Shown here piece after piece: positions 56 through 18,218 of a stretch of 37,429 nucleotides of DNA. The notes below the pieces were generated by a model, which searched no databases, was not told the DNA's origin, and saw only the letters and a list, made by a program, of their open reading frames with translations. This DNA is from an uncultured archaeon (GTDB taxonomy: Archaea > Asgardarchaeota > Thorarchaeia > Thorarchaeales > Thorarchaeaceae), in the NCBI GenBank assembly GCA_964473825.1, contig CAYYQL010000024.1, positions 1 through 37,429 of the forward strand, given 5' to 3'. The position numbers were made by a program, and so were the translations under genes. How positions within the stretch are numbered: the first letter of the stretch is position 1; each line of letters opens with the position of its first letter.

Positions 56-1063
56 CTAGTCGAGATGAAGAGGAGACCTGCACTCTGGATGATCGAAGAT
101 CTTCTCGCTCTCATATTCATTGCCGAGGAATTGATTGATCATCAGTGCTGCGTAGTTGCCAGTACCGGTTGCCATTGACACTTGTTGTGTGATTGGCCTG
201 CAATCTCCTGCGGCCCAGACTCCCTCTACATTTGTCTTTCCTCTGTGGTCTGTGATAATGTTGCCTCTCTGGTCAACCTCAACGCCAATCTGCTGCGCGA
301 GTTCTGACCGTGGTTCAGCAACGAAGCCAACAAAGAACACGTTGCACCGAAGCCTCTCTCCTGATTCCAGTGTGAGGCTCTGAACCTTGCCAGGCCTCGG
401 GAATGAGATCTCCTTGATGTTCCCTCTGTACCACTCGTACGGCGAGTCGTCCAGCTTGGATAGATCTTGCTGGTCGACTGGCATGTATGCATCTTCAGTC
501 ATTAAGATTCGAACATCTTTCGTAAATCGACTGAGTGTGTGGGCGACATGAAGTGCGCTACCAACAGTTCCAGCGTTGACCACGACTACATCTTTACCTT
601 TACAGAGAGGAGCCTCGCAATCCGGACAATAGAAGGCCGCATTGCCGACATTGGCAACCGACAGCCACTTTCTCCACATTCCATCCACCTTGGGATGTTT
701 CCGAGCCGTGCCTGTTGCGAAGATGAGTGTCTTGGCTTTGTACTCTGACTTATCCGAAGTCCTGTAGCTTCTATCTGTCCGCACAGTGAATTCGGGATAC
801 TTGCCCTTGACTTCCACAACATTGCCCTCCTTGAACTCTGCCCCAGATGACTTCGCCACTCCTTGCAATTGTCTGAGGAGAGTTCTTCCCTCATAGTATG
901 TCGGACCAGCGGGGAAGTTCATGATTGTATTAGTATGGTAATGCATGGGACTTGTTCCACGATCCAAGACCAAGACAGAGCGATGATGATAGGCTAGATG
1001 AAGTGCGCCAGCGGCTCCTGCTGGTCCTCCGCCGACGATGATGGCATCGTAGAAATCAGTCAT
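56..1063 (-). CDS. Thioredoxin reductase-like FAD-dependent disulfide oxidoreductase with atypical NAD(P)H-binding motif
   Basis: N-terminal IIVGGGPAG FAD motif, FATG, redox CPDC, and C-terminal TNVEGVWAAGDC...QVSMATGTG. Confidence 0.85.
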   Translation of the reverse strand: MTDFYDAIIVGGGPAGAAGALHLAYHHRSVLVLDRGTSPMHYHTNTIMNFPAGPTYYEGRTLLRQLQGVAKSSGAEFKEGNVVEVKGKYPEFTVRTDRSYRTSDKSEYKAKTLIFATGTARKHPKVDGMWRKWLSVANVGNAAFYCPDCEAPLCKGKDVVVVNAGTVGSALHVAHTLSRFTKDVRILMTEDAYMPVDQQDLSKLDDSPYEWYRGNIKEISFPRPGKVQSLTLESGERLRCNVFFVGFVAEPRSELAQQIGVEVDQRGNIITDHRGKTNVEGVWAAGDCRPITQQVSMATGTGNYAALMINQFLGNEYESEKIFDHPECRSPLHLD

Positions 1064-1144
1064 GAGTTAATCCCGTTATGGGTGTCACTGCCCCCGTCTT
1101 AAAACTCTATGCGAGCCTCCGGGAAAGCGATAATGACTGTGACT

Positions 1145-1768
1145 CTAGCCCAAACATTCTCCTCCAGCATCTCGGCCGAGGTCAAATGCTTTGGAATTGG
1201 TGTCGCGGGTCTTAGGAGGGACGAGGTCAAGAACTGCCTTCCTTACGCTCTCAGTATCAATCGGGAAACCCCTGCAGCTGCAGATCGCCCCAATCAAAAC
1301 TGAATTCTCCGTCTTCGGATTGCCTGCCCTTTCTGCGAGGGCGAGGGAGTCCAGCATCACAATGCTCTGGGTCACCTCACGGAGCTTTTCTTCTATGGTT
1401 TCAACGGTAAGATATTCAGTATTCCCTTCTTTGTCGAGTGCCACCTCTTCGGTCTCACCGGGTGGTGGCATGATGCGGTTGCTCATGATGATTACACCGT
1501 CATCCTTCAAATACTCGATGTATCGGAGCGCCTCTGTGGCTTCCATGGCTATCATCATATCAGCCGAACCATAAGGAATGAGGGGAGAAATCGGCTTCCC
1601 CATTCTGAAGTGGACGTAGATTGAGCCTTGCCTCTGTGACAGCCCATGCTGTTCTCCTGTGACGACTTCTATACCGCTATCAACGGCCGCCCTGCCAAGG
1701 ATAGATGACAAGAGCATCAGACCCTGACCGCCAACGCCTGCAAAGATGATATCGTATCCGTCGTTCAT
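1145..1768 (-). CDS. iorB: Indolepyruvate:ferredoxin oxidoreductase beta subunit
   Basis: AGVGGQG and EQHGLSQRQGS motifs. Start moved to ATG 1768, which follows a GAGGTGA RBS overlapping the iorA stop. Confidence 0.92.
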   Translation of the reverse strand: MNDGYDIIFAGVGGQGLMLLSSILGRAAVDSGIEVVTGEQHGLSQRQGSIYVHFRMGKPISPLIPYGSADMMIAMEATEALRYIEYLKDDGVIIMSNRIMPPPGETEEVALDKEGNTEYLTVETIEEKLREVTQSIVMLDSLALAERAGNPKTENSVLIGAICSCRGFPIDTESVRKAVLDLVPPKTRDTNSKAFDLGRDAGGECLG

Positions 1769-1773
1769 TTGCT

Positions 1774-3693
1774 TCACCTCTCCACCTCTATATGATGCGG
1801 TGCATCCACGGGGCACACCTGCCTGCATTCGAGGCAGCCGTCACACAAGTCCTGCTGGATCACCATCTTCCCGTCGGCCTCATCAATGACGATTGCCGGG
1901 CAGTAGAACTCTTTAATGCAAGCGTAGATGCCTCTGCAGGTTTCCTTGTCGTTCTCACTGGGAATGATCTTCTGTCCCTGTTGTTTCTTGATGCGATCAC
2001 CATAGAGAGCGCAGGCTCGTCTCGAGATGATCACATTGAACCCATCCGCCTCTATCGCTTCCTTGATTGGGGTGATGCAGTCACGGGTTTCGTAGGGATC
2101 AATTACGGTGACGGAATCTGCACCCATAGCCTCAAGCACTTTCTGCATGTCAATCTTCTTAGCAGCATGTCCTCCTGCGTCTTTCGAACTGTTTGGATTG
2201 AACTGCTGTCCCGTCATGGCTGTCACTGCATTGTCGAGCACAAACAATGTGACATTCGCATTGTGATGGATGAGATTGATGATGCCTGGGAGCGCAGCGT
2301 GATAGAGCGTGCTGTCCCCAACCATGGCAATGATCTTGTCCTCCAATGTCATCTCCATTCCCGCAGATATGCCCACAGAGGCACCCATCGCAAGCATCGA
2401 GTCGCTGAACCTATTGGGTGGCAAGAAGGCCATGCTGTAACAGCCTATGTCGTTGTTGAAGACTATCTTATCACGTATCTTCAATCGGTCGAGTGCTTGT
2501 CGAAATGCCCAGAGAGTTCCGCGATGCGGACAACCGGGACAGAAGATGGGATACCGCTCAGGCAGGACTTCCTTCAGCCTGTTGGCCCGTTTCAGGACAG
2601 AATCATAATCAAGGCTCGAGTCTTTACCTGTGACTTCGGCAAGAACCTTCTCAACGATGGGAACGTTATATTCCAGCATCTCACTGAAGTGGCCACTTCG
2701 TTTCCCGATGATCGTGAGAGAAGGATTCGCGTCTTTAGCAATCGCTGCAATGCGGCTCTCAAGATAGGGTGTCAGTTCTTCAATTACGATGAGTACCTTG
2801 AGTGTCTTCAGATACTCTGCAATCCTACCCTCTGGGAGGGGGAACAACGTGCCAATCTTCATCACAGGTAGATGCAGACCGAGGTTTCGGAGCGCCTCCT
2901 TGGTGTGGAGATATGAAACACCTGCGGTGAGTATTCCTATGTTGCCCTCACCCGGGTCAACGTGATTGTGAATACTCCCCTCGAACTCCTCTTTCAGAGA
3001 TTCGCTCTTCTCAAGTAGTTCTCTCTTCAAGGCACGGGCCACAGCACCAACAGTGAAATACTGGTCCCTCACGTCCGTCCATTGCTTCTTCTTGAACTCC
3101 GTTCTATTGAGCTCGCCCAGCTGTACCATACCACGTTGGTGATTCACCCGAGTTGTTGTACGGATAATGATGAGGGTCTTGTGACGTTCCGATAGATCAA
3201 ATGCCCACTTGACCATCTCCAGAGATTCCTGAGGTGTTGCCGGCTCGAGCATCGGGACGTAAGCCGCTTCACCGAAGTACCGCCCATCTTGCTCTGACTG
3301 AGAGGAATGGGCATGGGGGTCATCGGCCATGACTGCAACACACCCTCCGTTGATTCCGGTATAGGCCAAAGAGAACATCGAGTCACTTGCGACGTTCATT
3401 CCCACGCTCTTCATGGAAGTCATTGAGCGGAATCCGGCCATCGAGGCGCCGGCTACTGTTTCAAGAGCCACCTTCTCGTTGACAGCAATCTGCATCCTGT
3501 AATCGCCAAAATGATCCAATAGCTCGCTGAATGTGTCCAGAATTTCCGATGTTGGACTGCCTGGGTAAGCCGCAACCACTTTCACATCTGATTCAAGTGC
3601 GCCTCTGACTATGGCTTCATTTGTGAGCATCAGTGCTCTGCCAATGTCTGTCCGCTTCACATCGTCTATGGTCAATCTGTATTCCCTCTGCAA
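1774..3693 (-). CDS. iorA: Indolepyruvate:ferredoxin oxidoreductase alpha subunit
   Basis: NEAIVRG, YPGSPTSEI, NEKVALE, DDPHAHSSQSEQD, FCPGCPHR, DIGCY, TPP motif GDST...LDNAVTAMTG, and a C-terminal ferredoxin domain (CDGCLECRQVCP). Confidence 0.95.
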   Translation of the reverse strand: MQREYRLTIDDVKRTDIGRALMLTNEAIVRGALESDVKVVAAYPGSPTSEILDTFSELLDHFGDYRMQIAVNEKVALETVAGASMAGFRSMTSMKSVGMNVASDSMFSLAYTGINGGCVAVMADDPHAHSSQSEQDGRYFGEAAYVPMLEPATPQESLEMVKWAFDLSERHKTLIIIRTTTRVNHQRGMVQLGELNRTEFKKKQWTDVRDQYFTVGAVARALKRELLEKSESLKEEFEGSIHNHVDPGEGNIGILTAGVSYLHTKEALRNLGLHLPVMKIGTLFPLPEGRIAEYLKTLKVLIVIEELTPYLESRIAAIAKDANPSLTIIGKRSGHFSEMLEYNVPIVEKVLAEVTGKDSSLDYDSVLKRANRLKEVLPERYPIFCPGCPHRGTLWAFRQALDRLKIRDKIVFNNDIGCYSMAFLPPNRFSDSMLAMGASVGISAGMEMTLEDKIIAMVGDSTLYHAALPGIINLIHHNANVTLFVLDNAVTAMTGQQFNPNSSKDAGGHAAKKIDMQKVLEAMGADSVTVIDPYETRDCITPIKEAIEADGFNVIISRRACALYGDRIKKQQGQKIIPSENDKETCRGIYACIKEFYCPAIVIDEADGKMVIQQDLCDGCLECRQVCPVDAPHHIEVER

Positions 3694-3880
3694 CGTCCGT
3701 TTCGATATTTCACTCAGCCTTCTGTCCCTGTTCAGATAAGCATTCGCTTGGCCCTTGTATGTCTATGCGTAGTACACAGGAACTATTCTTTTAAGAACAG
3801 AGAAAATGTCTGCTGATACACGCTATCAGCTACGCCAACAATTGGCCATGTCCCGTCATAGCGTGTTTGACCCGTCGGAA

Positions 3881-4177
3881 GTGATCAGAGTTAATCTTGT
3901 GTTCTTATGTCCGGAGTGTAAAGGGAAGGCCTCGATGGATATCACTGAAGAGGAAGTTGCAGATGTGAAATCTCGGATAGCCCAGGATGGTCGATCTCCC
4001 ACAGTGATTGTCAAGTGTGAGAACGGGCACGATCTGTTGGTGACACTCTATAATATGGGTGATGGACTTGGAGTTCGTGATATAGTTGTGGCTATGGCGA
4101 AGACCGAGGTTGCAGTCGACAAGACTGAGGTCTCGGAGATTGACTGGTTGAAGAAGGCTTTCGGGGGTGAACAGTGA
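3881..4177 (+). CDS. Small hypothetical protein, putative Zn-binding (CxxC...CxxxH)
   Basis: CPEC and CENGH motifs; stop overlaps the next gene (GTGA). Start uncertain (3806, 3849 or 3881). Confidence 0.7.
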   Translation: MIRVNLVFLCPECKGKASMDITEEEVADVKSRIAQDGRSPTVIVKCENGHDLLVTLYNMGDGLGVRDIVVAMAKTEVAVDKTEVSEIDWLKKAFGGEQ

Positions 4178-4179
4178 TA

Positions 4180-4551
4180 ATGCTTCATCTTGTTGCTCGT
4201 GTCAATCTGGAGAACCTTGACACTCAAGTTATCTATCCACGGGATCAAAAGGAAGAAGAGCGGATTGCGCTTCTGACTGGAATCGTCCAGCTTGTTTCAA
4301 CTGCTCTTGAACGTTCGGGTAGCCCGTCAGCCAAGGGACAGCCCATGTTCATGAAATCTGAAAGGGGAGTTATAGGCTACTGCACTGTGAAAGACGATCT
4401 ATTCATCTGTCAGGGTGATGCTGAACGGGAAACGGGTGACGCGCTTAAGATGCTGGCGAAGACACCAAAGGCATCTGACGAAGAATTATCTGATGGTATC
4501 GCTGATTTGGTATCTAAGCGCGGAAAGGAAATCGGAGATCTTTGGAGGTAG
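4180..4551 (+). CDS. Hypothetical protein, possible longin/roadblock-like fold
   Basis: About 123 aa after a GGGGGTGA RBS. Apparent beta-beta-alpha(ALLTGIVQLVSTAL)-beta-beta-beta-alpha pattern; the fold is inferred by eye. Confidence 0.6.
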   Translation: MLHLVARVNLENLDTQVIYPRDQKEEERIALLTGIVQLVSTALERSGSPSAKGQPMFMKSERGVIGYCTVKDDLFICQGDAERETGDALKMLAKTPKASDEELSDGIADLVSKRGKEIGDLWR

Positions 4552-4556
4552 AAAGA

Positions 4557-5966
4557 ATGGATTTCAGGTTAGCTTTCATTGTTGGCGGCGCTATTGCAAC
4601 ATTCATTCTAATCATTTCTTTGATAATCTTTGCTCGGGCATACATGCGACTCAGGGAGCGTCTGTCCTATCCTGTGAGAAGATCGCTCTTTCTCATGGGT
4701 GCAGCAGGTTCTATGATTGTGTTGGTGGGGTTCACTGCAGCGGTAGCAGTTATCCTGATAGATATCTGGCTTGTTATCTTCAGTTCTCTCATAATCAACT
4801 CAGAGGTTAGTCTGCTGAGCGATGATGCGGACACCCGTTTCATCGGAACTGTTTCATCTGTAGTTGTCACGTTTCTTGTTGTGTTGTTGAAATTCATAGT
4901 ACCCGAATTGGGAGCCTTACTAGCTGGTCCGCTATTGGTAGGAATGTTCGGTGTAGCTTTTCTGCTTGGCATTAAGCTGGCCCTCGCCTCTCCGTCACCG
5001 TTTAGTATTTCGCTGAACGTTCTCCTAATCTCGATGATTTCGACCTACGTGTTGGCTTCAACGGGCATTCTCGGATTTGCTCCTGAATACTTCATTATAA
5101 TAATAACCCCCGTCGTTGTTCCTGCAGCCATCTTTGCCGGGATGTCTCGGCCGTGGCGTTACATGGTTGTATTATCAATAGTGTTTCTGGCCCTGTCAGT
5201 AGGCATGTCCATGACTATTGTTTCGTATCTCTCAAATGAACCGTACATATACGCATATGTTCTTGCAGCTGCAGCAGCAGCACTTGCAGCGCTATATCCG
5301 CTGAATTACTTCTTGGAACAAGCTTCTATCACCGGCGCAAGAACCCCTGCATTTATTGCTGCTACCCAGGTAGCGATATGCCTCCTAGTTATCACTCACA
5401 GCATCGCGTGGGCTATAGCTTGGAACCACGCCATAGCTGAGGGACTGACAATCGCAGACGGTGTCTGGGATGTGCATTTCCTGTTTGTTGACTGGGTTCT
5501 TGGGGTTGCAGGCGTTTCGTGTCTCTTGCTTGCTGCGATTTCGACGAGTGGCAGCGAAAAGACCATTTCTATAACCATAGATTCTCTGATATTCATCGGC
5601 TTTGCCTTGATTGTACTCGGTCATCCGTTTGTCCGGGCTGAAAAGTACGAACTCGCTCTTCTCTATATGCCTTTGGCCGTATTGATTGTGATTGCCAGTG
5701 GAGCCTTCATTAGAGTGGCGGTCCGGATGAAGAAAGCAGGATCTACTTCAGCAGCAGCCCGCTTCATCATGTTTATCTTCGCTTCTTTGGGTGCTGGGCT
5801 GGCTGCAATGTTCTCGGATATGATGTGGATGATGTGGCCGCCTCTGGTCTTGTCAATCATGGTTGTAGTAGCTTTCATGTTGCTGGCAAGTAGCCCAACT
5901 GGCTTCAGGGCCCTGACGCGACTCCAGAGTCCGACCATTCCTTCACTAGGAGAGGATGATGCATAA
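4557..5966 (+). CDS. Polytopic membrane protein (~15 TM), paralogue A
   Basis: About 15 hydrophobic segments; GGAGGT RBS before ATG 4557. Shares SPSPF, PWR, FLEQ and C-terminal SSP motifs with the next gene. Confidence 0.8.
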   Translation: MDFRLAFIVGGAIATFILIISLIIFARAYMRLRERLSYPVRRSLFLMGAAGSMIVLVGFTAAVAVILIDIWLVIFSSLIINSEVSLLSDDADTRFIGTVSSVVVTFLVVLLKFIVPELGALLAGPLLVGMFGVAFLLGIKLALASPSPFSISLNVLLISMISTYVLASTGILGFAPEYFIIIITPVVVPAAIFAGMSRPWRYMVVLSIVFLALSVGMSMTIVSYLSNEPYIYAYVLAAAAAALAALYPLNYFLEQASITGARTPAFIAATQVAICLLVITHSIAWAIAWNHAIAEGLTIADGVWDVHFLFVDWVLGVAGVSCLLLAAISTSGSEKTISITIDSLIFIGFALIVLGHPFVRAEKYELALLYMPLAVLIVIASGAFIRVAVRMKKAGSTSAAARFIMFIFASLGAGLAAMFSDMMWMMWPPLVLSIMVVVAFMLLASSPTGFRALTRLQSPTIPSLGEDDA

Positions 5967-7348
5967 TGGATTTTACCCTGACATTGCAAATTGGGTCCAT
6001 AGTCACCGCCGGCATTCTTGTTATCTCAGCGGCTGAGTTCGGAAGGTCAATCTATGGCATTCGTGGTGATGTGTCCTCCTCAACCTTCAGGGCTCTTGTC
6101 TTCTTCGGAGCCGCTTCACTGGCCCTTGGCCTGATAGTGATCAATACGACCTTCGTGGCCGGAACCATTGGACAACGAACGTGGATTGCATTGTTCTTGG
6201 TGTTCATCATAGTTTCAGAGGTGCATGTTGCCACTGATAGCAAAAGGGCACATCGGGGCATCTACGTGGTTGCCATTTTCGCACTTTCTGCAGCAGCACT
6301 GGTCGCCATGCAGAGTCCAAGTGAAGTCTCTCCGATTCTGGCCACCGCTCTAGCCATCGCGGTTACAACCGCAATCTTGTTCGGCGCATGGTTGATCTAT
6401 GATTCTCCTTCGCCTTTCACTGTGGGTCTGCTTCTCCTTCTCGGCGCCTTTCTTGCTTCTTGGTCGATAATCACACAGGGAGTCTTTGTTCAGGAGATTG
6501 ACGTGAGTTCTTTCAATCTCTTTCTGATCCTATTCCTGCCTGGTATGGTCGCCTCGTCCATCATGATCTCGATGCTGAAGCCCTGGCGACAGATTCTCAC
6601 CAGCTTCATCGTGTTCACTTCAATCATGACCGCCACTTCAATCGGACTTGCGGCGCTTCTCACCTATTCTGCAGCGGTCGACCTTCAGATTGCGGTCTTC
6701 GTGTTCGCAACCTGCATAATAGTGGTATCTTCGACAGCTTCAGTCGACTTCTTCCTCGAGCAGTCTGCTGAAACCAATGCACGCATCCCCCTTTACATGG
6801 CGCTCACGCTTGTTTCAATTGCTGGGTTGCTAGTCTTACATATGTTGTTCTATCCGATGCTCCTGCTGACAGGCATCAACGAGGATCCTTTGCTATCTTA
6901 TATTCAATGGATTCTGGGCATGACGGGGACTGCCACCTTTGTTATCGGAGGGTTCTACTCCGTTATCACCAAGAAGACTGTTGGCTACTTGAGGCGAGGG
7001 TTGCTGATATTCATCGCCGTGATGGCGGTTCTAGCCAATCCTGTAATTCGTTCGGATTCTCTTGGTGTGACATATAGGTGGGTGTACGATGACCTCTTTC
7101 CATACCTCCTCGGAGTAATCTTGGTGGGTGTGGTCGGTTATATGCTAGTGGTTAGACGGTTGCGTCGAGTGGGCTCTCATCGAGCAGCACGAAACTTCAT
7201 GTCCTTTGCATTCTCTGCGCTGGCCACTGCGGCTGTCATATTCTTTTCTGACGACCTTCCGTACGTCGTTATTGTGGGGCTCATTGTCGTACTTGGCAGT
7301 CTAATGTTGTCAAGTAGTCCTAGAAGAATCGCTGGTGATACAAGGTAA
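5966..7348 (+). CDS. Polytopic membrane protein (~15 TM), paralogue B
   Basis: TAATG stop/start overlap with paralogue A, with collinear shared motifs. Confidence 0.8.
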   Translation: MDFTLTLQIGSIVTAGILVISAAEFGRSIYGIRGDVSSSTFRALVFFGAASLALGLIVINTTFVAGTIGQRTWIALFLVFIIVSEVHVATDSKRAHRGIYVVAIFALSAAALVAMQSPSEVSPILATALAIAVTTAILFGAWLIYDSPSPFTVGLLLLLGAFLASWSIITQGVFVQEIDVSSFNLFLILFLPGMVASSIMISMLKPWRQILTSFIVFTSIMTATSIGLAALLTYSAAVDLQIAVFVFATCIIVVSSTASVDFFLEQSAETNARIPLYMALTLVSIAGLLVLHMLFYPMLLLTGINEDPLLSYIQWILGMTGTATFVIGGFYSVITKKTVGYLRRGLLIFIAVMAVLANPVIRSDSLGVTYRWVYDDLFPYLLGVILVGVVGYMLVVRRLRRVGSHRAARNFMSFAFSALATAAVIFFSDDLPYVVIVGLIVVLGSLMLSSSPRRIAGDTR

Positions 7349-7404
7349 GATTTAATGATAGTGCTGGGTAGGTAAGGTGCGGACAGAAGTACCGAGGTGC
7401 GCAG

Positions 7405-7947
7405 ATGGCCATAATAAAAGCAGTAGTACTAGGGGAAACCGAAGTCGGGAAGACCTCGTTTACTGCTCGCTGGACAACAGGCAGTTTCCCGGACCCAAAC
7501 GCATTGAAGACCACTGTCGGTGCAAGCTTCGACACAAAGCGTGTTGAACTACCCAGCGGCACGACGGTGACCTTGAGCCTGTGGGACTTCGGGGGTCAAT
7601 TACGTTTCATCGAAGCAATGAAAGGGATGATTCGCGGAGCCAAGATAGGCGCGTTCTTCTTTGACGTTTCCAAGATGGCCACTCTGGATGCAATCTTCGG
7701 TTATTGGATTCCGACAGTGGAGCAAAACAGCTCACTCAACTTCTCAGAAGGTGCGGGTGAACGATTTATTCTGGTGGGAAACAAGATTGACCTTCTGGAT
7801 TCCCCCTTCAATAAGGTCCAAGATGAGATGGATCGCCTTGCCGAGCCTTACGGGATGAAGAGCCAGCTAATATCCGCGAAGACTGGAATCGGCATTGAGA
7901 GTCTTGATTATAAGTTCCTTGAGATTGTGAGCAGGTTTGCCGAGTGA
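7405..7947 (+). CDS. Ras-superfamily small GTPase (Rab/Roc-like)
   Basis: G1 GETEVGKTS, G2 KTTVGASF, G3 WDFGGQ, G4 NKID, G5 SAK; GAGGTG RBS; no C-terminal Cys. Confidence 0.92.
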   Translation: MAIIKAVVLGETEVGKTSFTARWTTGSFPDPNALKTTVGASFDTKRVELPSGTTVTLSLWDFGGQLRFIEAMKGMIRGAKIGAFFFDVSKMATLDAIFGYWIPTVEQNSSLNFSEGAGERFILVGNKIDLLDSPFNKVQDEMDRLAEPYGMKSQLISAKTGIGIESLDYKFLEIVSRFAE

Positions 7948-8011: not shown

Positions 8012-9925
8012 TCACCTCGCGGTACGCAAGAACACCCTAACACTGAGTCCTTTCTCTCGATGCCCCTCAATGCGGTCTTCCAGCTCAAGACGGCCGCCAT
8101 ATTTTCGTACAATCCGTCGAACGAGGTGCAGACCAACACCAGCGGAGCGTCTAGAGAGCCTGAAGAGGCGTTGTTTCTCCTTATCACTCATACCTGGTCC
8201 ATTGTCACTGAACCTGAGCTCGAAGAAATCACCATGGTCTTCTCCATGTATCCAGACTCTCTTGTCATCACTGGGATTGTGTTTGATGCTGTTCTCCATG
8301 AGATTCCAGAAGAGATGCCCAAGCGCACTGTCAGCCATCACCTTCACGCGGTCTGGAAGACCTGAGAACTCTGGCGTTACATTGTACTGGCTTGCGAACA
8401 GACGTGCTTGCGAACGCAACAGGCTCACTATCTCTGTTGGATGCAGCGGCTCGCTCTTAAATCTCTCTGCCTGCCTAATATTCTCAATAAGTTCAAGACA
8501 CCTGGTGGCCCCATCCAAGACATATTGCCGGGCATTCCTGATATGATCACTCAGGGAGTCATCATTGAGCAGGTCCGCACCCGCCACAATCAGCTGTAGC
8601 TGGTTCCCTATGTCGTGGAGCAATAAATCTAGGAGAAACTTCACCTCAGCCTCAGCATTCTTGAGTTCAGAGACGTCAGTAAAGACTGCAAAGCTGCCCT
8701 GATATTTTCCGTCAGATCCGAACACGGGTGACGCGTGAACAATTGCGGGGATTATATGACCATCTCGGTGTATCAGCTCGATTTCGTAATGGTCTGCCTC
8801 TCCTCTCCTGCGTTCTAGAATCTTTTCTTGGACTTCTTTTTCTGTCCATCCATAGGTCCACTTCGTTATAGACTCACCAATCAGGTCCTCCGGCTCGCTG
8901 TAGCCCAGCATCTTGCATAGCGCGTCATTAACAAGGAGCGTCTTGCCCTTATCATCATCGATGCAAAAGCCGGAGTCCATGGTTTCAAGGAGTGTGCGGT
9001 ATTTTTGTTCGCTCTCTCGTAATGCCCTGCGTGCTTCTTTCTCTTCAGTAATGTCTTGAATCTGTGCGACAGTCTTTACAGAGTTTTCTCCTGTCACCAT
9101 GACAGCACTGCTAATAACTACATCTCGAGATGTTCCATCACTGCGAAGGATTTTGAACTCGTATACACGAGGTACTTCTTCTCCTCTTTGACGTTTTATG
9201 TATCTCTCAGCAACCAGGCCTATGCTATCCGGGTGAAGAAACTCTCGAAAATCATGTCCGAGCACCTCACTACGAGTGAGTCCAAGCATATCAAGTAGTT
9301 TGTCGTTGGTATACTCGAATTGATAGTTATCATTGACCACGAAGATACCAGCAAAGCTTGAGTATTCTATGATGAACTGGAAGATACCCTCCCTCTCTTG
9401 GAACTTCTCCTCAATTGCCAACCGTCGAGTCATATCAAGAACATAGACGACGAAGCCAACCGGGTTTCCCTCTTCAAATACCAATTCAGCCCAGGATTCT
9501 GTGAGAATCTCGGCACCATCCTTTCGATTGACCTTCAGAGTGATTGGTGTGGGTTCTGCTCCTTCAAGAAGCGCCCTCAGACCTCTCTCCACGAGGCCCT
9601 TCTCTTCCGACGAAACTATGCTCTTGGCACTAATCCCATGTTCGAGATCAGAATCACCAATACAGAGGAGTTTCTTGGCGTTCTTGTTGGCATATATGAT
9701 TCTGTAATCGAGATCCAGTTCCACTATCGGTAGCAGAATACCTTCAACTGTGTTTCTGAAGAGAGTTCTGTTGGTCTGTTCAGCACCTTCTGATTTTGCT
9801 TGCCGGTTCATTTGTTCTAACCAACTTGAGATAGGTTCTCGACTCCACTTGCACATGCACTCCAGAATACACCGTTCTTGCTGTTGGTTCAACACTAATA
9901 TCTTTTCGTCATGTACTGTCAACAT
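8012..9925 (-). CDS. Cytoplasmic multi-PAS sensor histidine kinase
   Basis: Three PAS/PAC repeats (ending DMT, DIT, DVS), H-box LLHDIGNQLQ, N-box NLMENSIKHN, DNGPG and GVGL. Start uncertain. Confidence 0.9.
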   Translation of the reverse strand: MLTVHDEKILVLNQQQERCILECMCKWSREPISSWLEQMNRQAKSEGAEQTNRTLFRNTVEGILLPIVELDLDYRIIYANKNAKKLLCIGDSDLEHGISAKSIVSSEEKGLVERGLRALLEGAEPTPITLKVNRKDGAEILTESWAELVFEEGNPVGFVVYVLDMTRRLAIEEKFQEREGIFQFIIEYSSFAGIFVVNDNYQFEYTNDKLLDMLGLTRSEVLGHDFREFLHPDSIGLVAERYIKRQRGEEVPRVYEFKILRSDGTSRDVVISSAVMVTGENSVKTVAQIQDITEEKEARRALRESEQKYRTLLETMDSGFCIDDDKGKTLLVNDALCKMLGYSEPEDLIGESITKWTYGWTEKEVQEKILERRRGEADHYEIELIHRDGHIIPAIVHASPVFGSDGKYQGSFAVFTDVSELKNAEAEVKFLLDLLLHDIGNQLQLIVAGADLLNDDSLSDHIRNARQYVLDGATRCLELIENIRQAERFKSEPLHPTEIVSLLRSQARLFASQYNVTPEFSGLPDRVKVMADSALGHLFWNLMENSIKHNPSDDKRVWIHGEDHGDFFELRFSDNGPGMSDKEKQRLFRLSRRSAGVGLHLVRRIVRKYGGRLELEDRIEGHREKGLSVRVFLRTAR

Positions 9926-10101: not shown

Positions 10102-10578
10102 CTAGCCACCTGGACTGCCTTTCCAAGGAGTATCTTTCCACATGATGTCCCATAACATGTCCTCAGTCAATGTTTCGGGCTCGACTATCATCTTATGAAG
10201 ATCTTTGAGCAATGCGTGATGTCGCAGCTCGTCTTCTCTGATAGTTAGGGCAATTGTTTTGACTTGCTTGTTATCACTGCCGTCTGCGAGTTGCTTGTAG
10301 GTGTCTATCGCATGCTGCTCCAGTTCTATGTGCTTCTCAATACCTCTCTTGATTTCATCTCTTTCGCCAGTGCTGATGAAGGGTGTAGGGCCTTTCACTG
10401 CTGTCCTGAGAGATTTCAGTAGTGCGGCATGTTTTTTCGAGTCTTGTGATATTGCAAGCAGCATATCCTTTACGAAATCGTTGCCCAATTTCGCTGTATT
10501 CTTTTCGATAATCTCGATAATCCTATTCTCAAGCTTTATCTGCTTGTCAATGAATTCCAGCGTCTCTTCCTTGTTCAT
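10102..10578 (-). CDS. Ferritin-like/rubrerythrin-type four-helix bundle protein
   Basis: Two internal repeats, IKLE...DSKKH and IELE...DELRH. Confidence 0.75.
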   Translation of the reverse strand: MNKEETLEFIDKQIKLENRIIEIIEKNTAKLGNDFVKDMLLAISQDSKKHAALLKSLRTAVKGPTPFISTGERDEIKRGIEKHIELEQHAIDTYKQLADGSDNKQVKTIALTIREDELRHHALLKDLHKMIVEPETLTEDMLWDIMWKDTPWKGSPGG

Positions 10579-10896
10579 TCGAACGAACTCCTCACAGGTC
10601 TTTGACTATTCTTATCCGTTATCTGCCCACTTAAGACTGTTCGCTAGCTTGCATCTAACAGCTCAGGTCTTGGTGGTCTTCAGAGATGATTTCTTGCCAA
10701 CCATTGTCAGTGTAATGCGAAGCAAGGCACGGGGTAGTATCTCCTCTTCAACACCCTCGATCTCGCCACCCTGTGTTCGAGATATGGCTCTATCCATGAC
10801 TGAAACCTCTTATCTTCTACCCATCGGTTTCTACCAGGTCGCAATGTATTTGAGTCATCAACGAATATTCTGCAATAAGAATCTTGAAGAAGTGGT

Positions 10897-11148
10897 GTGT
10901 CCAGCGTGGCAAAAGCAACTCTCTATATGGCTCCCAAATGTCCTCATTCTGCTCGGGTCAAGTCGTTCCTTGAAGCGGCCGGTCTCAAAGCTGAGGAGAA
11001 GTGTGTCCTTGATGGTGAACAGATTCTCCAAGAGATGATTGATGTCAGTGGTCAGAAGGCCATCCCTGTCACCGTCATCGGTGAAGATGTATTTGTCGGG
11101 TTTGATAGACGAATAGAACGGAGAATGAAGCGAAAAATGGAGGAATGA
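10897..11148 (+). CDS. Glutaredoxin/NrdH-like protein (CPHS)
   Basis: LYMAPKCPHS, SGQKAIPV and VGFD motifs; 3 nt upstream of trxB. Confidence 0.8.
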   Translation: MSSVAKATLYMAPKCPHSARVKSFLEAAGLKAEEKCVLDGEQILQEMIDVSGQKAIPVTVIGEDVFVGFDRRIERRMKRKMEE

Positions 11149-11151
11149 GTT

Positions 11152-12087
11152 ATGTACGATGTGGTTGTGATTGGTTCGGGTGTGACCGGCTATGCTGCTG
11201 CCATGTATGCTGCTCGCCTTGACCTGAGTGTCGTAGTTATAGGGAATGTTGAGGGAGGCACCATAACCGAAACCAACGAGGTCGCCAACTATCCTGGTTT
11301 CGTCATGCTGACGGGGACAGAGCTGGCAGAGAAACTCAAGCAACACGCCCTTGACTACCCGGTCGATCTCGAGACCGGCAATGTCACGAATGTGCTTCGT
11401 TGTGAACAGGATTGTTTCTATGTCGTGACGGATAAGAAGACATTCTTGGCAAAGTCCCTGATATTCGCGACAGGAATGCGGGAACGAGAGCTTGAGGTTC
11501 CCGGACACGACGAGCTTCGTAACCGGGGTGTGAGTTATTGTGCTCTATGTGATGCTCCACTCTTCAAAGACAAGACAGTGGCAGTTGTGGGCGGAAGCGA
11601 TGCGGCTGCGAAAGAGGCATTGCTGCTCGCCAAGTACTGTTCGAAGGTATATCTGATCTATCGCGGAAAGAAGATACGCCCTGAGCCAATCAACGCCGAG
11701 CGAGTGGAGAAAGACAGTCGAATAGAAGTCATCACCGAAACGAATGTCACTGAGATAGTGGGGGAGAACCGAGTCAAAGCCGTGAAGCTGGACCGACCTC
11801 ACAATGGGTCCGACACTCTTCCAGTCGACGGGGTGTTCATTGCCATTGGTGGCATTCCCCGATCTGATTTGGCCAAGAAACTGGGAGTTGAAAGGAATGA
11901 GAAAGGTGAGATTATCATTGATCGAAGCAGTCGTACGAACGTCGACGGCGTATTTGCGGCTGGGGACGTTGTCAACACTGAGTTCAAGCAGGCCATAACG
12001 GGAGTTGGCGAAGGAGTCCATGCTGCATATCAGGCCTACACGTATGTCAATGAGCACGATTTCGTGTTCACATGCCAACAAGAATAG
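11152..12087 (+). CDS. trxB: Thioredoxin-disulfide reductase
   Basis: VIGSGVTG, NYPG, RGVSYCALCD, VVGGSDAA and GVFAAGDV. Confidence 0.9.
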   Translation: MYDVVVIGSGVTGYAAAMYAARLDLSVVVIGNVEGGTITETNEVANYPGFVMLTGTELAEKLKQHALDYPVDLETGNVTNVLRCEQDCFYVVTDKKTFLAKSLIFATGMRERELEVPGHDELRNRGVSYCALCDAPLFKDKTVAVVGGSDAAAKEALLLAKYCSKVYLIYRGKKIRPEPINAERVEKDSRIEVITETNVTEIVGENRVKAVKLDRPHNGSDTLPVDGVFIAIGGIPRSDLAKKLGVERNEKGEIIIDRSSRTNVDGVFAAGDVVNTEFKQAITGVGEGVHAAYQAYTYVNEHDFVFTCQQE

Positions 12088-17645: not shown

Positions 17646-18218
17646 ATGGTGATCAGAGTCGTGTCTGTTCCAGCTTACAAGCTGTTACTAGTGGGCGATG
17701 CCAATGTGGGGAAGTCATCGTTGATTCGCTGGCTTCTTCTGGGAGATTTTGACCCTGACTACACGGCAACTGTAGGTGTTGACCTGAGTGCTGTTGCACT
17801 GAATGTGGACGGAAAGACTCCTGTCATCATGACCATGATCGATTTAGGGGGCCAGTCCGATTTCACGGCGCTCAGGACGCAATACTACAAGGGCGCTCAT
17901 GGTGCTGCACTTGTCTATGACATATCCTGTCACGCTTCGTTTGAGAATCTAGAGACATGGCATGATGAGCTGAAAGAACATATCGAAGAGCCAAACGGCG
18001 TGTCTCTTCAGGGTGTCGTGATTGGAAATAAGATTGACAAGGCAGGGTCAAGAGAGGTGCCGCGAATCGAAGGCAGATCCTTCGCAGATAGCATCGGTTG
18101 GCCATTTCACGAAACAAGTGCCAAGTCTGGTGAACATGTTGAGGATGTTTTTGCGGCGCTTGCTAAGAGAATGTATGTGTCCCACCCCCCTCTGAAGACC
18201 CGAGCCGCCCACACCTGA
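17646..18218 (+). CDS. Rab-like small GTPase
   Basis: GDANVGKSS, YTATVGVD, DLGGQ, YYKGAHGAALVYDIS, GNKID and ETSAK. Confidence 0.93.
   Translation: MVIRVVSVPAYKLLLVGDANVGKSSLIRWLLLGDFDPDYTATVGVDLSAVALNVDGKTPVIMTMIDLGGQSDFTALRTQYYKGAHGAALVYDISCHASFENLETWHDELKEHIEEPNGVSLQGVVIGNKIDKAGSREVPRIEGRSFADSIGWPFHETSAKSGEHVEDVFAALAKRMYVSHPPLKTRAAHT

Follow-up and report, generated by a model that had tools for sequence, protein, structure and literature searches.

The window analyzed here is the whole stretch from position 1 to 37,429 of contig CAYYQL010000024.1, from an uncultured archaeon of the family Thorarchaeaceae. At 3881–7947 it holds a block of five open reading frames (ORFs), all on the + strand, which we call g1 to g5: a zinc-ribbon protein, a longin-fold protein, two paralogous membrane proteins and a Ras-superfamily GTPase. 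The five genes form one co-inherited module that is gained or lost as a unit. On a modest balance of probability, we read them as a module that builds a membrane-attached small-GTPase switch, for which we infer the binding between the proteins, the role of an exchange factor for guanine nucleotides (GEF) or GTPase-activating protein (GAP), the direction of the signal, a ligand and a downstream output.

Organization of the block

Direct reading of the sequence and of the ORF map of the window confirms a preliminary description of this DNA, which had listed five co-oriented genes with overlapping or very short junctions. The first gene, g1 (3881–4177), encodes a small zinc-ribbon protein of about 98 amino acids that is predicted to be cytoplasmic. 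Its start is ambiguous—ATG at 3806, ATG at 3848 or GTG at 3881—and orthologues start near the position of 3881. The end of g1 overlaps g2 (4174–4551; 125 amino acids) in the sequence GTGA at 4174–4177. The TAG stop codon of g2 (4549–4551) is followed by a gap of 5 nt and the ATG of g3 at 4557, with GGAGG ahead of it. The two membrane protein genes, g3 (4557–5966; 469 amino acids) and g4 (5966–7348; 460 amino acids), overlap in TAATG at 5964–5968. A 56-nt spacer (7349–7404) separates g4 from g5 (7405–7947; 180 amino acids) and carries a Shine-Dalgarno-like GAGGTG at 7394–7399, 5 nt before the ATG at 7405.

Upstream, the block is bordered by iorA, which is divergent; downstream, by a convergent gene for a PAS histidine kinase. 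The intergenic region between iorA (minus strand) and g1 (3694–3880) contains a TATA-like TTTTAAG at approximately 3789–3795 and is likely the promoter region of the block. We also considered an internal promoter before g5. Across genera, conservation in the g4–g5 spacer is confined to the Shine-Dalgarno-like motif, which fits translation from a common transcript without proving it; a TATA-like ATTTAATG ahead of g5 is conserved within the genus only. Conservation of the spacer neither supports separate transcription of g5 nor rules it out.

Inheritance of the block as one unit

The order of zinc-ribbon, longin, one or two transmembrane (TM) and GTPase genes is kept in 17 of the 17 related loci that we fetched from Thorarchaeaceae, and across at least 12 genera of this family; this recurrence far exceeds chance. 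Only one TM gene is present in approximately half of the cassettes, and the core of the module is therefore four genes; in the four-gene versions the TM gene and the GTPase gene are 1–26 nt apart or overlap. The heterodimeric membrane component of the preliminary description agrees with the two TM paralogues present here, but does not belong to the core. Cassettes are not restricted to one family: the TM family's most divergent members (~20% identity) stand in this arrangement of four or five genes between unrelated neighbors, and some of these proteins carry NCBI record names from metagenome-assembled genomes (MAGs) of Odinarchaeia and Asgardarchaeia. The neighborhood, whose conservation across Asgard genomes had been named earlier as a point to check, is thus conserved across genera and into other Asgard classes. 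A peptidase gene of the Odin-labelled contig has no close match in Thorarchaeaceae, in a search made without a positive control, and this result fits an origin of the contig in another lineage.

Four Thor genomes that do not carry the module have the rubrerythrin-like gene and iorA only 150–420 nt apart (G375:C2:29581–32200, G369:C79:2822–5357, G004:C39:21526–24330 and G016:C23:15589–18194). At these empty sites the redox genes are directly adjacent, and hence the whole block is present or absent as one piece. Whole-cassette tandem duplications also occur, leaving some genomes with two cassettes side by side. In two loci (L022:3697–10637 and L023:4036–9421) the tandem pairs consist of whole cassettes of different subtype. 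In subtype A the tail of g2 ends in DLWR and the GTPase carries RWTTG; in subtype B the g2 tail ends in LWG, the GTPase carries RYTTGNFP and g1 has a two-residue insertion. Trees of the TM, GTPase and longin proteins display a congruent A/B split, even for cassettes that lie side by side, and in the g1 tree the A type forms a clade with a support of 0.908. Another locus (L025:3898–8574, contig G024:C121) has two zinc-ribbon–longin–TM triads in tandem, followed by a single GTPase gene. From this arrangement, the triad would be the tightest unit, and a single GTPase could serve two of them.

A lone extra TM paralogue, with no zinc-ribbon or longin gene of its own, is found approximately 250 nt upstream of a complete four-gene cassette in one locus (L027:4292–5653, contig G017:C208). 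As for the neighbors, the module is always flanked on one side by iorAB together with a TrxR-like gene, and on the other by a rubrerythrin-like gene of 158 amino acids together with a second TrxR-like gene (56–3693 and 10102–12087 in the window). The module and the rubrerythrin-like gene are separated by the PAS-rich histidine kinase gene (8012–9925, minus strand) in this genus alone (the window and the loci L013 and L014). At the corresponding place in other genera the kinase gene is missing, so a later insertion seems likely.

All 32 of the 32 loci found through g2 sequence patterns belong to Thorarchaeota/Promethearchaeota MAGs. Profiles of g2 and of the distant TM proteins matched nothing in 315 genomes of other Asgard families; the carrier genomes of the distant cassettes evidently lie outside that sample. 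A word-index search for homologues of g3 returned only two proteins, and an exhaustive profile search was used instead, which found 67 representatives of the TM family among 1.84 billion proteins. The Protein Atlas search returned only unnamed Thorarchaeota clusters, and PADLOC gave no defence-system match. As far as these searches reach, the module is Asgard-specific, narrow in range and accessory.

Membrane proteins modelled with two receptor-shaped bundles

The g3 and g4 proteins are paralogues with 27% identity (E 5e-27), and the g4-type clade, with a support of 100/99, is kept in seven genomes. Judged from this comparison, they are old, separately conserved paralogues. Neither matches a family in Pfam or NCBIfam, apart from a sub-threshold match to DUF6458 (Pfam); a profile search of the PDB with the TM protein found no match, and no 7tm family profile was matched either. 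A transporter family match unrelated to the GTPase would have spoken against the preliminary description, and the Pfam, NCBIfam and PDB profile searches returned no transporter family.

The AlphaFold2 (AF2) model of g3, built from 31 sequences, has a predicted local distance difference test (pLDDT) score of 89.8, a predicted template modelling (pTM) score of 0.88 and 15 TM helices. The model of g4 rests on its homology to g3. Structural searches with the g3 model returned almost only GPCR (G-protein-coupled receptor) TM domains, aligned to residues 1–200 or to residues 227–460. As the matches align to either half separately, the architecture is read as 7+1+7, with TM1–7 and TM9–15 modelled as two GPCR-shaped bundles and TM8 as a linker helix. 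The count of lysine and arginine residues averages 17.5 on the predicted inside and 3.6 on the outside in the 31-sequence alignment. This distribution places the N-terminus outside and the C-terminal tail in the cytoplasm, so that both bundles take the orientation of receptors and TM8 returns the chain across the membrane. Seven helices with the N-terminus out and the C-terminus in, as expected of a GPCR-type protein, are therefore predicted for both TM1–7 and TM9–15, without a match to a 7tm sequence profile. The earlier claim of two paralogous 15-TM proteins agrees with the observed paralogy, and its count of helices with the g3 model and the charge distribution. The pair had also been described as resembling no recognizable family, and as to shape this does not stand: the model displays two GPCR-like seven-transmembrane (7TM) bundles.

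Conserved positions of the TM proteins favor the cytoplasmic side (33 versus 17, Fisher p 0.017). They are mostly aromatic residues, proline or glycine, and no charged residues are conserved within the helices. We rejected a reading of g3 as a microbial rhodopsin: there is no lysine in TM7 (180–195) or TM15 (428–445), which excludes a retinal protein.

Longin-fold and zinc-ribbon proteins

The g2 protein has no match in Pfam or NCBIfam at E ≤ 1, and none in the PDB by sequence or by profile. Its AF2 model, built from 20 orthologues, has a pLDDT of 85 and a pTM of 0.79, and its elements follow the order strand–strand–helix–strand–strand–strand–helix–helix, which is the longin order. The five-stranded sheet and the element order of a longin domain are thus present in the model, while no profile of a described longin or roadblock family is matched. 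In an exhaustive structural comparison the top 50 matches are all longin or roadblock domains, and the top ones include longin domains of Rab GEFs: DENND1A, Mon1-Ccz1, TRAPP, BLOC-3 and CPLANE. The predicted fold and these matches support the earlier designation of g2 as longin-like. The C-terminal motif of g2, RGKEIGDLWR, is highly conserved, and within it E..LW is invariant.

The g1 protein retains the ligands CPxC...C...H, an invariant GRSPT loop and a C-terminal DW..AFGG motif. The Pfam family Zn_ribbon_Brz (PF23454) matches 18 of 20 g1 orthologues at E ≤ 0.01, with a best E of 6e-7; the g1 of the window itself scores 23–24 bits, under the cut-off of 27.9 bits. Sequence and profile searches of the PDB with g1 gave nothing meaningful. 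By these scores g1 is a weakly matched zinc ribbon of the Brz type, and the preliminary statement that the four upstream genes match no family consequently fails for g1, while holding for g2, g3 and g4 by profile search.

The survival of the C-terminal motifs was examined in one distant cassette, which we added to the g1 and g2 alignments. In this outgroup (19–32% identity), W89, F94 and G95 of g1 and E119, L123 and W124 of g2 stay invariant. Fused, longer forms of g2 or g1 were searched for and none were found, which is weak evidence only.

The gene brz, founder of the family of g1-like ribbons, sits directly upstream of the 7TM gene bop in the same orientation in Halobacterium, where Brz has an effect on the level of bop mRNA; that work did not demonstrate that Brz itself binds DNA (PMC2253796). 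The presence of a Brz-type ribbon next to a 7TM gene in both cases may be a coincidence or a recurrent link between Brz ribbons and 7TM proteins.

The GTPase

The g5 protein matches Pfam Ras (PF00071) with 79.8 bits against a cut-off of 21.6 (E 2e-22), and its best matches in the PDB, at E ~1e-15, are the Rabs Ypt51 and 7ezb, the latter from Thorarchaeota. The motifs G1–G5 are complete—GETEVGKTS, the switch I threonine (T36/T37), WDFGGQ, NKID and SAK—and are invariant or nearly so in 19 orthologues, in which the switch regions are also nearly invariant; the catalytic glutamine is present. No lipidation site was found: all 19 of the 19 orthologues lack a C-terminal cysteine, and there is no N-terminal glycine (Gly2). 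Both statements made earlier about this gene, a complete G1–G5 small GTPase at the end of the operon and the lack of a lipidation site, are upheld by these data. The C-terminal cysteine prenylation motif of a Rab proper is accordingly absent from the orthologues. Its own genome has 24 Ras-family matches, and the score of g5 is the 15th highest among them, which makes it a divergent member of the Ras family. By its best matches, then, g5 is Rab-like, yet divergent. The window also contains a second, far more canonical Rab-like GTPase at 17646–18218 (Pfam Ras, 140.7 bits).

Proposed mechanism and alternatives

Longin and roadblock proteins regulate small GTPases as GEFs and GAPs. These established roles, together with the anatomy of the module, are the grounds for the mechanism that we propose. 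The TM proteins g3 and g4 probably pair here, a single copy taking their place in other genomes, and would act as a membrane receptor or anchor, each presenting two GPCR-shaped bundles, an outside N-terminus and a conserved cytoplasmic face. On this face g2, probably together with g1, would dock through the invariant tryptophan-containing C-terminal tails. The resulting platform would either load g5 with GTP as a GEF, in the manner of the eukaryotic longin GEFs, or turn g5 off as a GAP, in the manner of MglB. Since g5 has no lipid anchor of its own, its nucleotide state would then follow the state of the membrane protein. A single complex prediction for g1, g2, g5 and g3, scored with g3 as the partner, gave an ipSAE of 0.15, where the mark is 0.32, and speaks neither way on binding.

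Several observations weigh against the switch. The N-terminal and C-terminal halves of the TM protein have no meaningful similarity in hhalign (probability 3%), and an internal duplication is thus not supported. Neither Pfam nor PDB profile searches provide a sequence link between the TM proteins and any receptor family, and the cytoplasmic loops are short, which leaves small docking surfaces. The g2 profile matches 39 of 85 genomes of the family, marking the module as accessory. The region around the module is, moreover, generally collinear among Thorarchaeaceae genera, so that synteny within the family is not strong evidence alone, and the empty sites, the duplications and the distant cassettes weigh more. 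The same collinearity is what could be expected if the genes were adjacent by descent only and had no joint function. We regard this as very unlikely, given that distant cassettes repeat the four gene types between unrelated flanks, that presence or absence of the block is clean, that whole cassettes are duplicated, and that start and stop codons overlap.

A more serious competitor is a module of membrane identity or trafficking, in which the TM proteins would label a domain of the membrane, with the longin protein as a Rab-type GEF and the GTP-bound GTPase recruiting remodelling effectors for protrusions or vesicles; no external signal would be relayed. The Rab GEF longin domains at the top of the g2 matches, the Rabs at the top of the g5 matches and the Asgard host all agree with such a role. 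We nevertheless consider it unlikely: no effector, coat or tether gene accompanies the cassette in the loci examined, the module is accessory and often lost, g5 is among the least Rab-like of the 24 Ras-family genes in its genome, and the 7TM shape points more to a receptor-type protein. Alternatively, the 15-TM protein might be a transceptor or regulated transporter that moves or senses a small molecule or lipid, with the longin protein, the zinc ribbon and the GTPase reporting or gating its activity. Analogues are known in lysosomal SLC38A9 or LYCHOS, which work with Ragulator and Rag GTPases, and in the GTPase-coupled FeoB. This appears doubtful, as no transporter family is matched by sequence, the fold matches are receptor bundles rather than transporter domains, and the helices have no conserved charged residues among their mostly aromatic, proline and glycine conserved positions. 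The role of g1 admits a different view as well: it could be the output of the system, a Brz-like regulator that binds nucleic acids, with the GTPase controlling its activity or its release from the membrane complex; the module would then be a relay from membrane to transcription. The matches of 18 of 20 orthologues to Zn_ribbon_Brz (best E 6e-7), together with the effect of Brz on bop mRNA and the co-oriented 7TM gene directly downstream of brz (PMC2253796), are in favor of this view. It is weakened by the sub-threshold score of the window's g1, by the lack of demonstrated DNA binding by Brz in that study, and by the generic capacity of small CPxC ribbons to bind proteins or nucleic acids; in addition, the invariant C-terminal tryptophan motif of g1 resembles that of g2, which suggests a shared docking role. 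We find an output role for g1 quite improbable.

The membrane-attached switch can also be extended. The double-7TM proteins could be true receptors, with a longin-fold exchange factor relaying their signal to a Ras-like GTPase; their bundles may share descent with GPCR-type proteins of eukaryotes, or the system may prefigure the logic of a membrane sensor with Ragulator and Rag. To this stronger version we give little credence at present.

Relation to known systems

The nearest known design is that of the actinobacterial conservons, in which a Ras-like GTPase is combined with a membrane sensor, a roadblock protein and a small GEF (PMC13343842, PMC13621833, PMC11343762). The module shares with the conservon (CvnA–D; the Mfp operon of mycobacteria) the presence of a roadblock-superfamily protein, a small GTPase and a membrane protein in one operon, and also the anchoring of the GTPase through partners, which we propose here as a prediction from the genes. 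By contrast, the membrane part of the module is a double 7TM protein without a kinase domain (g3 and g4 have no HATPase or HisKA match in Pfam or NCBIfam), whereas that of the conservon is the histidine-kinase-like CvnA. The regulator has the longin order here and the roadblock order in the conservon; the accessory protein is a zinc ribbon, matching Brz only, instead of the DUF742 protein CvnC/MfpC. The module's GTPase gives Ras/Rab-like scores, the genes are ordered differently, and the module occurs in an Asgard archaeon. For three of the four parts, Pfam and NCBIfam revealed no sequence link to the conservon. By these comparisons the module is not a conservon, though it may operate in a similar way, and the likeness is one of design, not of descent.

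Other systems share single components. In comparison with the eukaryotic longin Rab GEFs (Mon1-Ccz1, the TRAPP core, DENN, BLOC-3 and CPLANE), g2 is a single free-standing domain of 125 amino acids with no sequence similarity to them. In the MglA–MglB pair of Myxococcus and Thermus, to be compared together with the Asgard roadblock proteins (7f8m, 7yh1, 9jue), MglB is a GAP with the roadblock order, and the pair, unlike the module, includes no membrane protein or zinc ribbon. GPCRs with heterotrimeric G proteins, and LYCHOS or SLC38A9 with Ragulator and Rag, have no sequence similarity to the module, and homology with GPCRs is not implied: the module has two bundles in one chain, joined by an eighth helix, and its G protein is small and Ras-like, not a G-alpha.

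Within Asgard archaea, Liu and colleagues described an operon of a LAMTOR1-like roadblock protein, a Rab-like GTPase and a DENN protein in most Asgard lineages (bioRxiv 10.1101/2020.10.19.343400). Both are conserved Asgard neighborhoods that pair a Rab-like GTPase with longin/roadblock-superfamily partners, but the LAMTOR1-like operon is devoid of a membrane protein or zinc ribbon, and the present module is narrower in range and of other composition. A preprint from 2026 includes 7TM proteins and a cluster resembling class C GPCRs among the structural families that Asgard archaea have in common with eukaryotes, and does not describe this operon. We found no published description of it in the literature searched, the coverage of which is incomplete.

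Significance

Small GTPases number in the dozens in Asgard genomes, which also encode many proteins of the longin or roadblock type. In a structural study of Asgard GTPases, Tran and colleagues (2024) noted that small GTPase genes of MK-D1 are generally located outside operons with roadblock or longin genes, so that the partners cannot be matched from the genome (PMC10933270). The module is an exception, since it names one GTPase along with the regulator it probably has and two kinds of partner, a zinc ribbon and a membrane protein, all of a size suited to expression and assay. If the TM proteins do not act as receptors, the module would still provide a new membrane protein family and a new set of partners for a prokaryotic small GTPase. 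If they do, it would represent a coupling of 7TM proteins to a GTPase via a longin platform in those archaea that are most closely related to eukaryotes, and would bear on the origin of eukaryotic membrane signalling and of Rab/Rag regulation.

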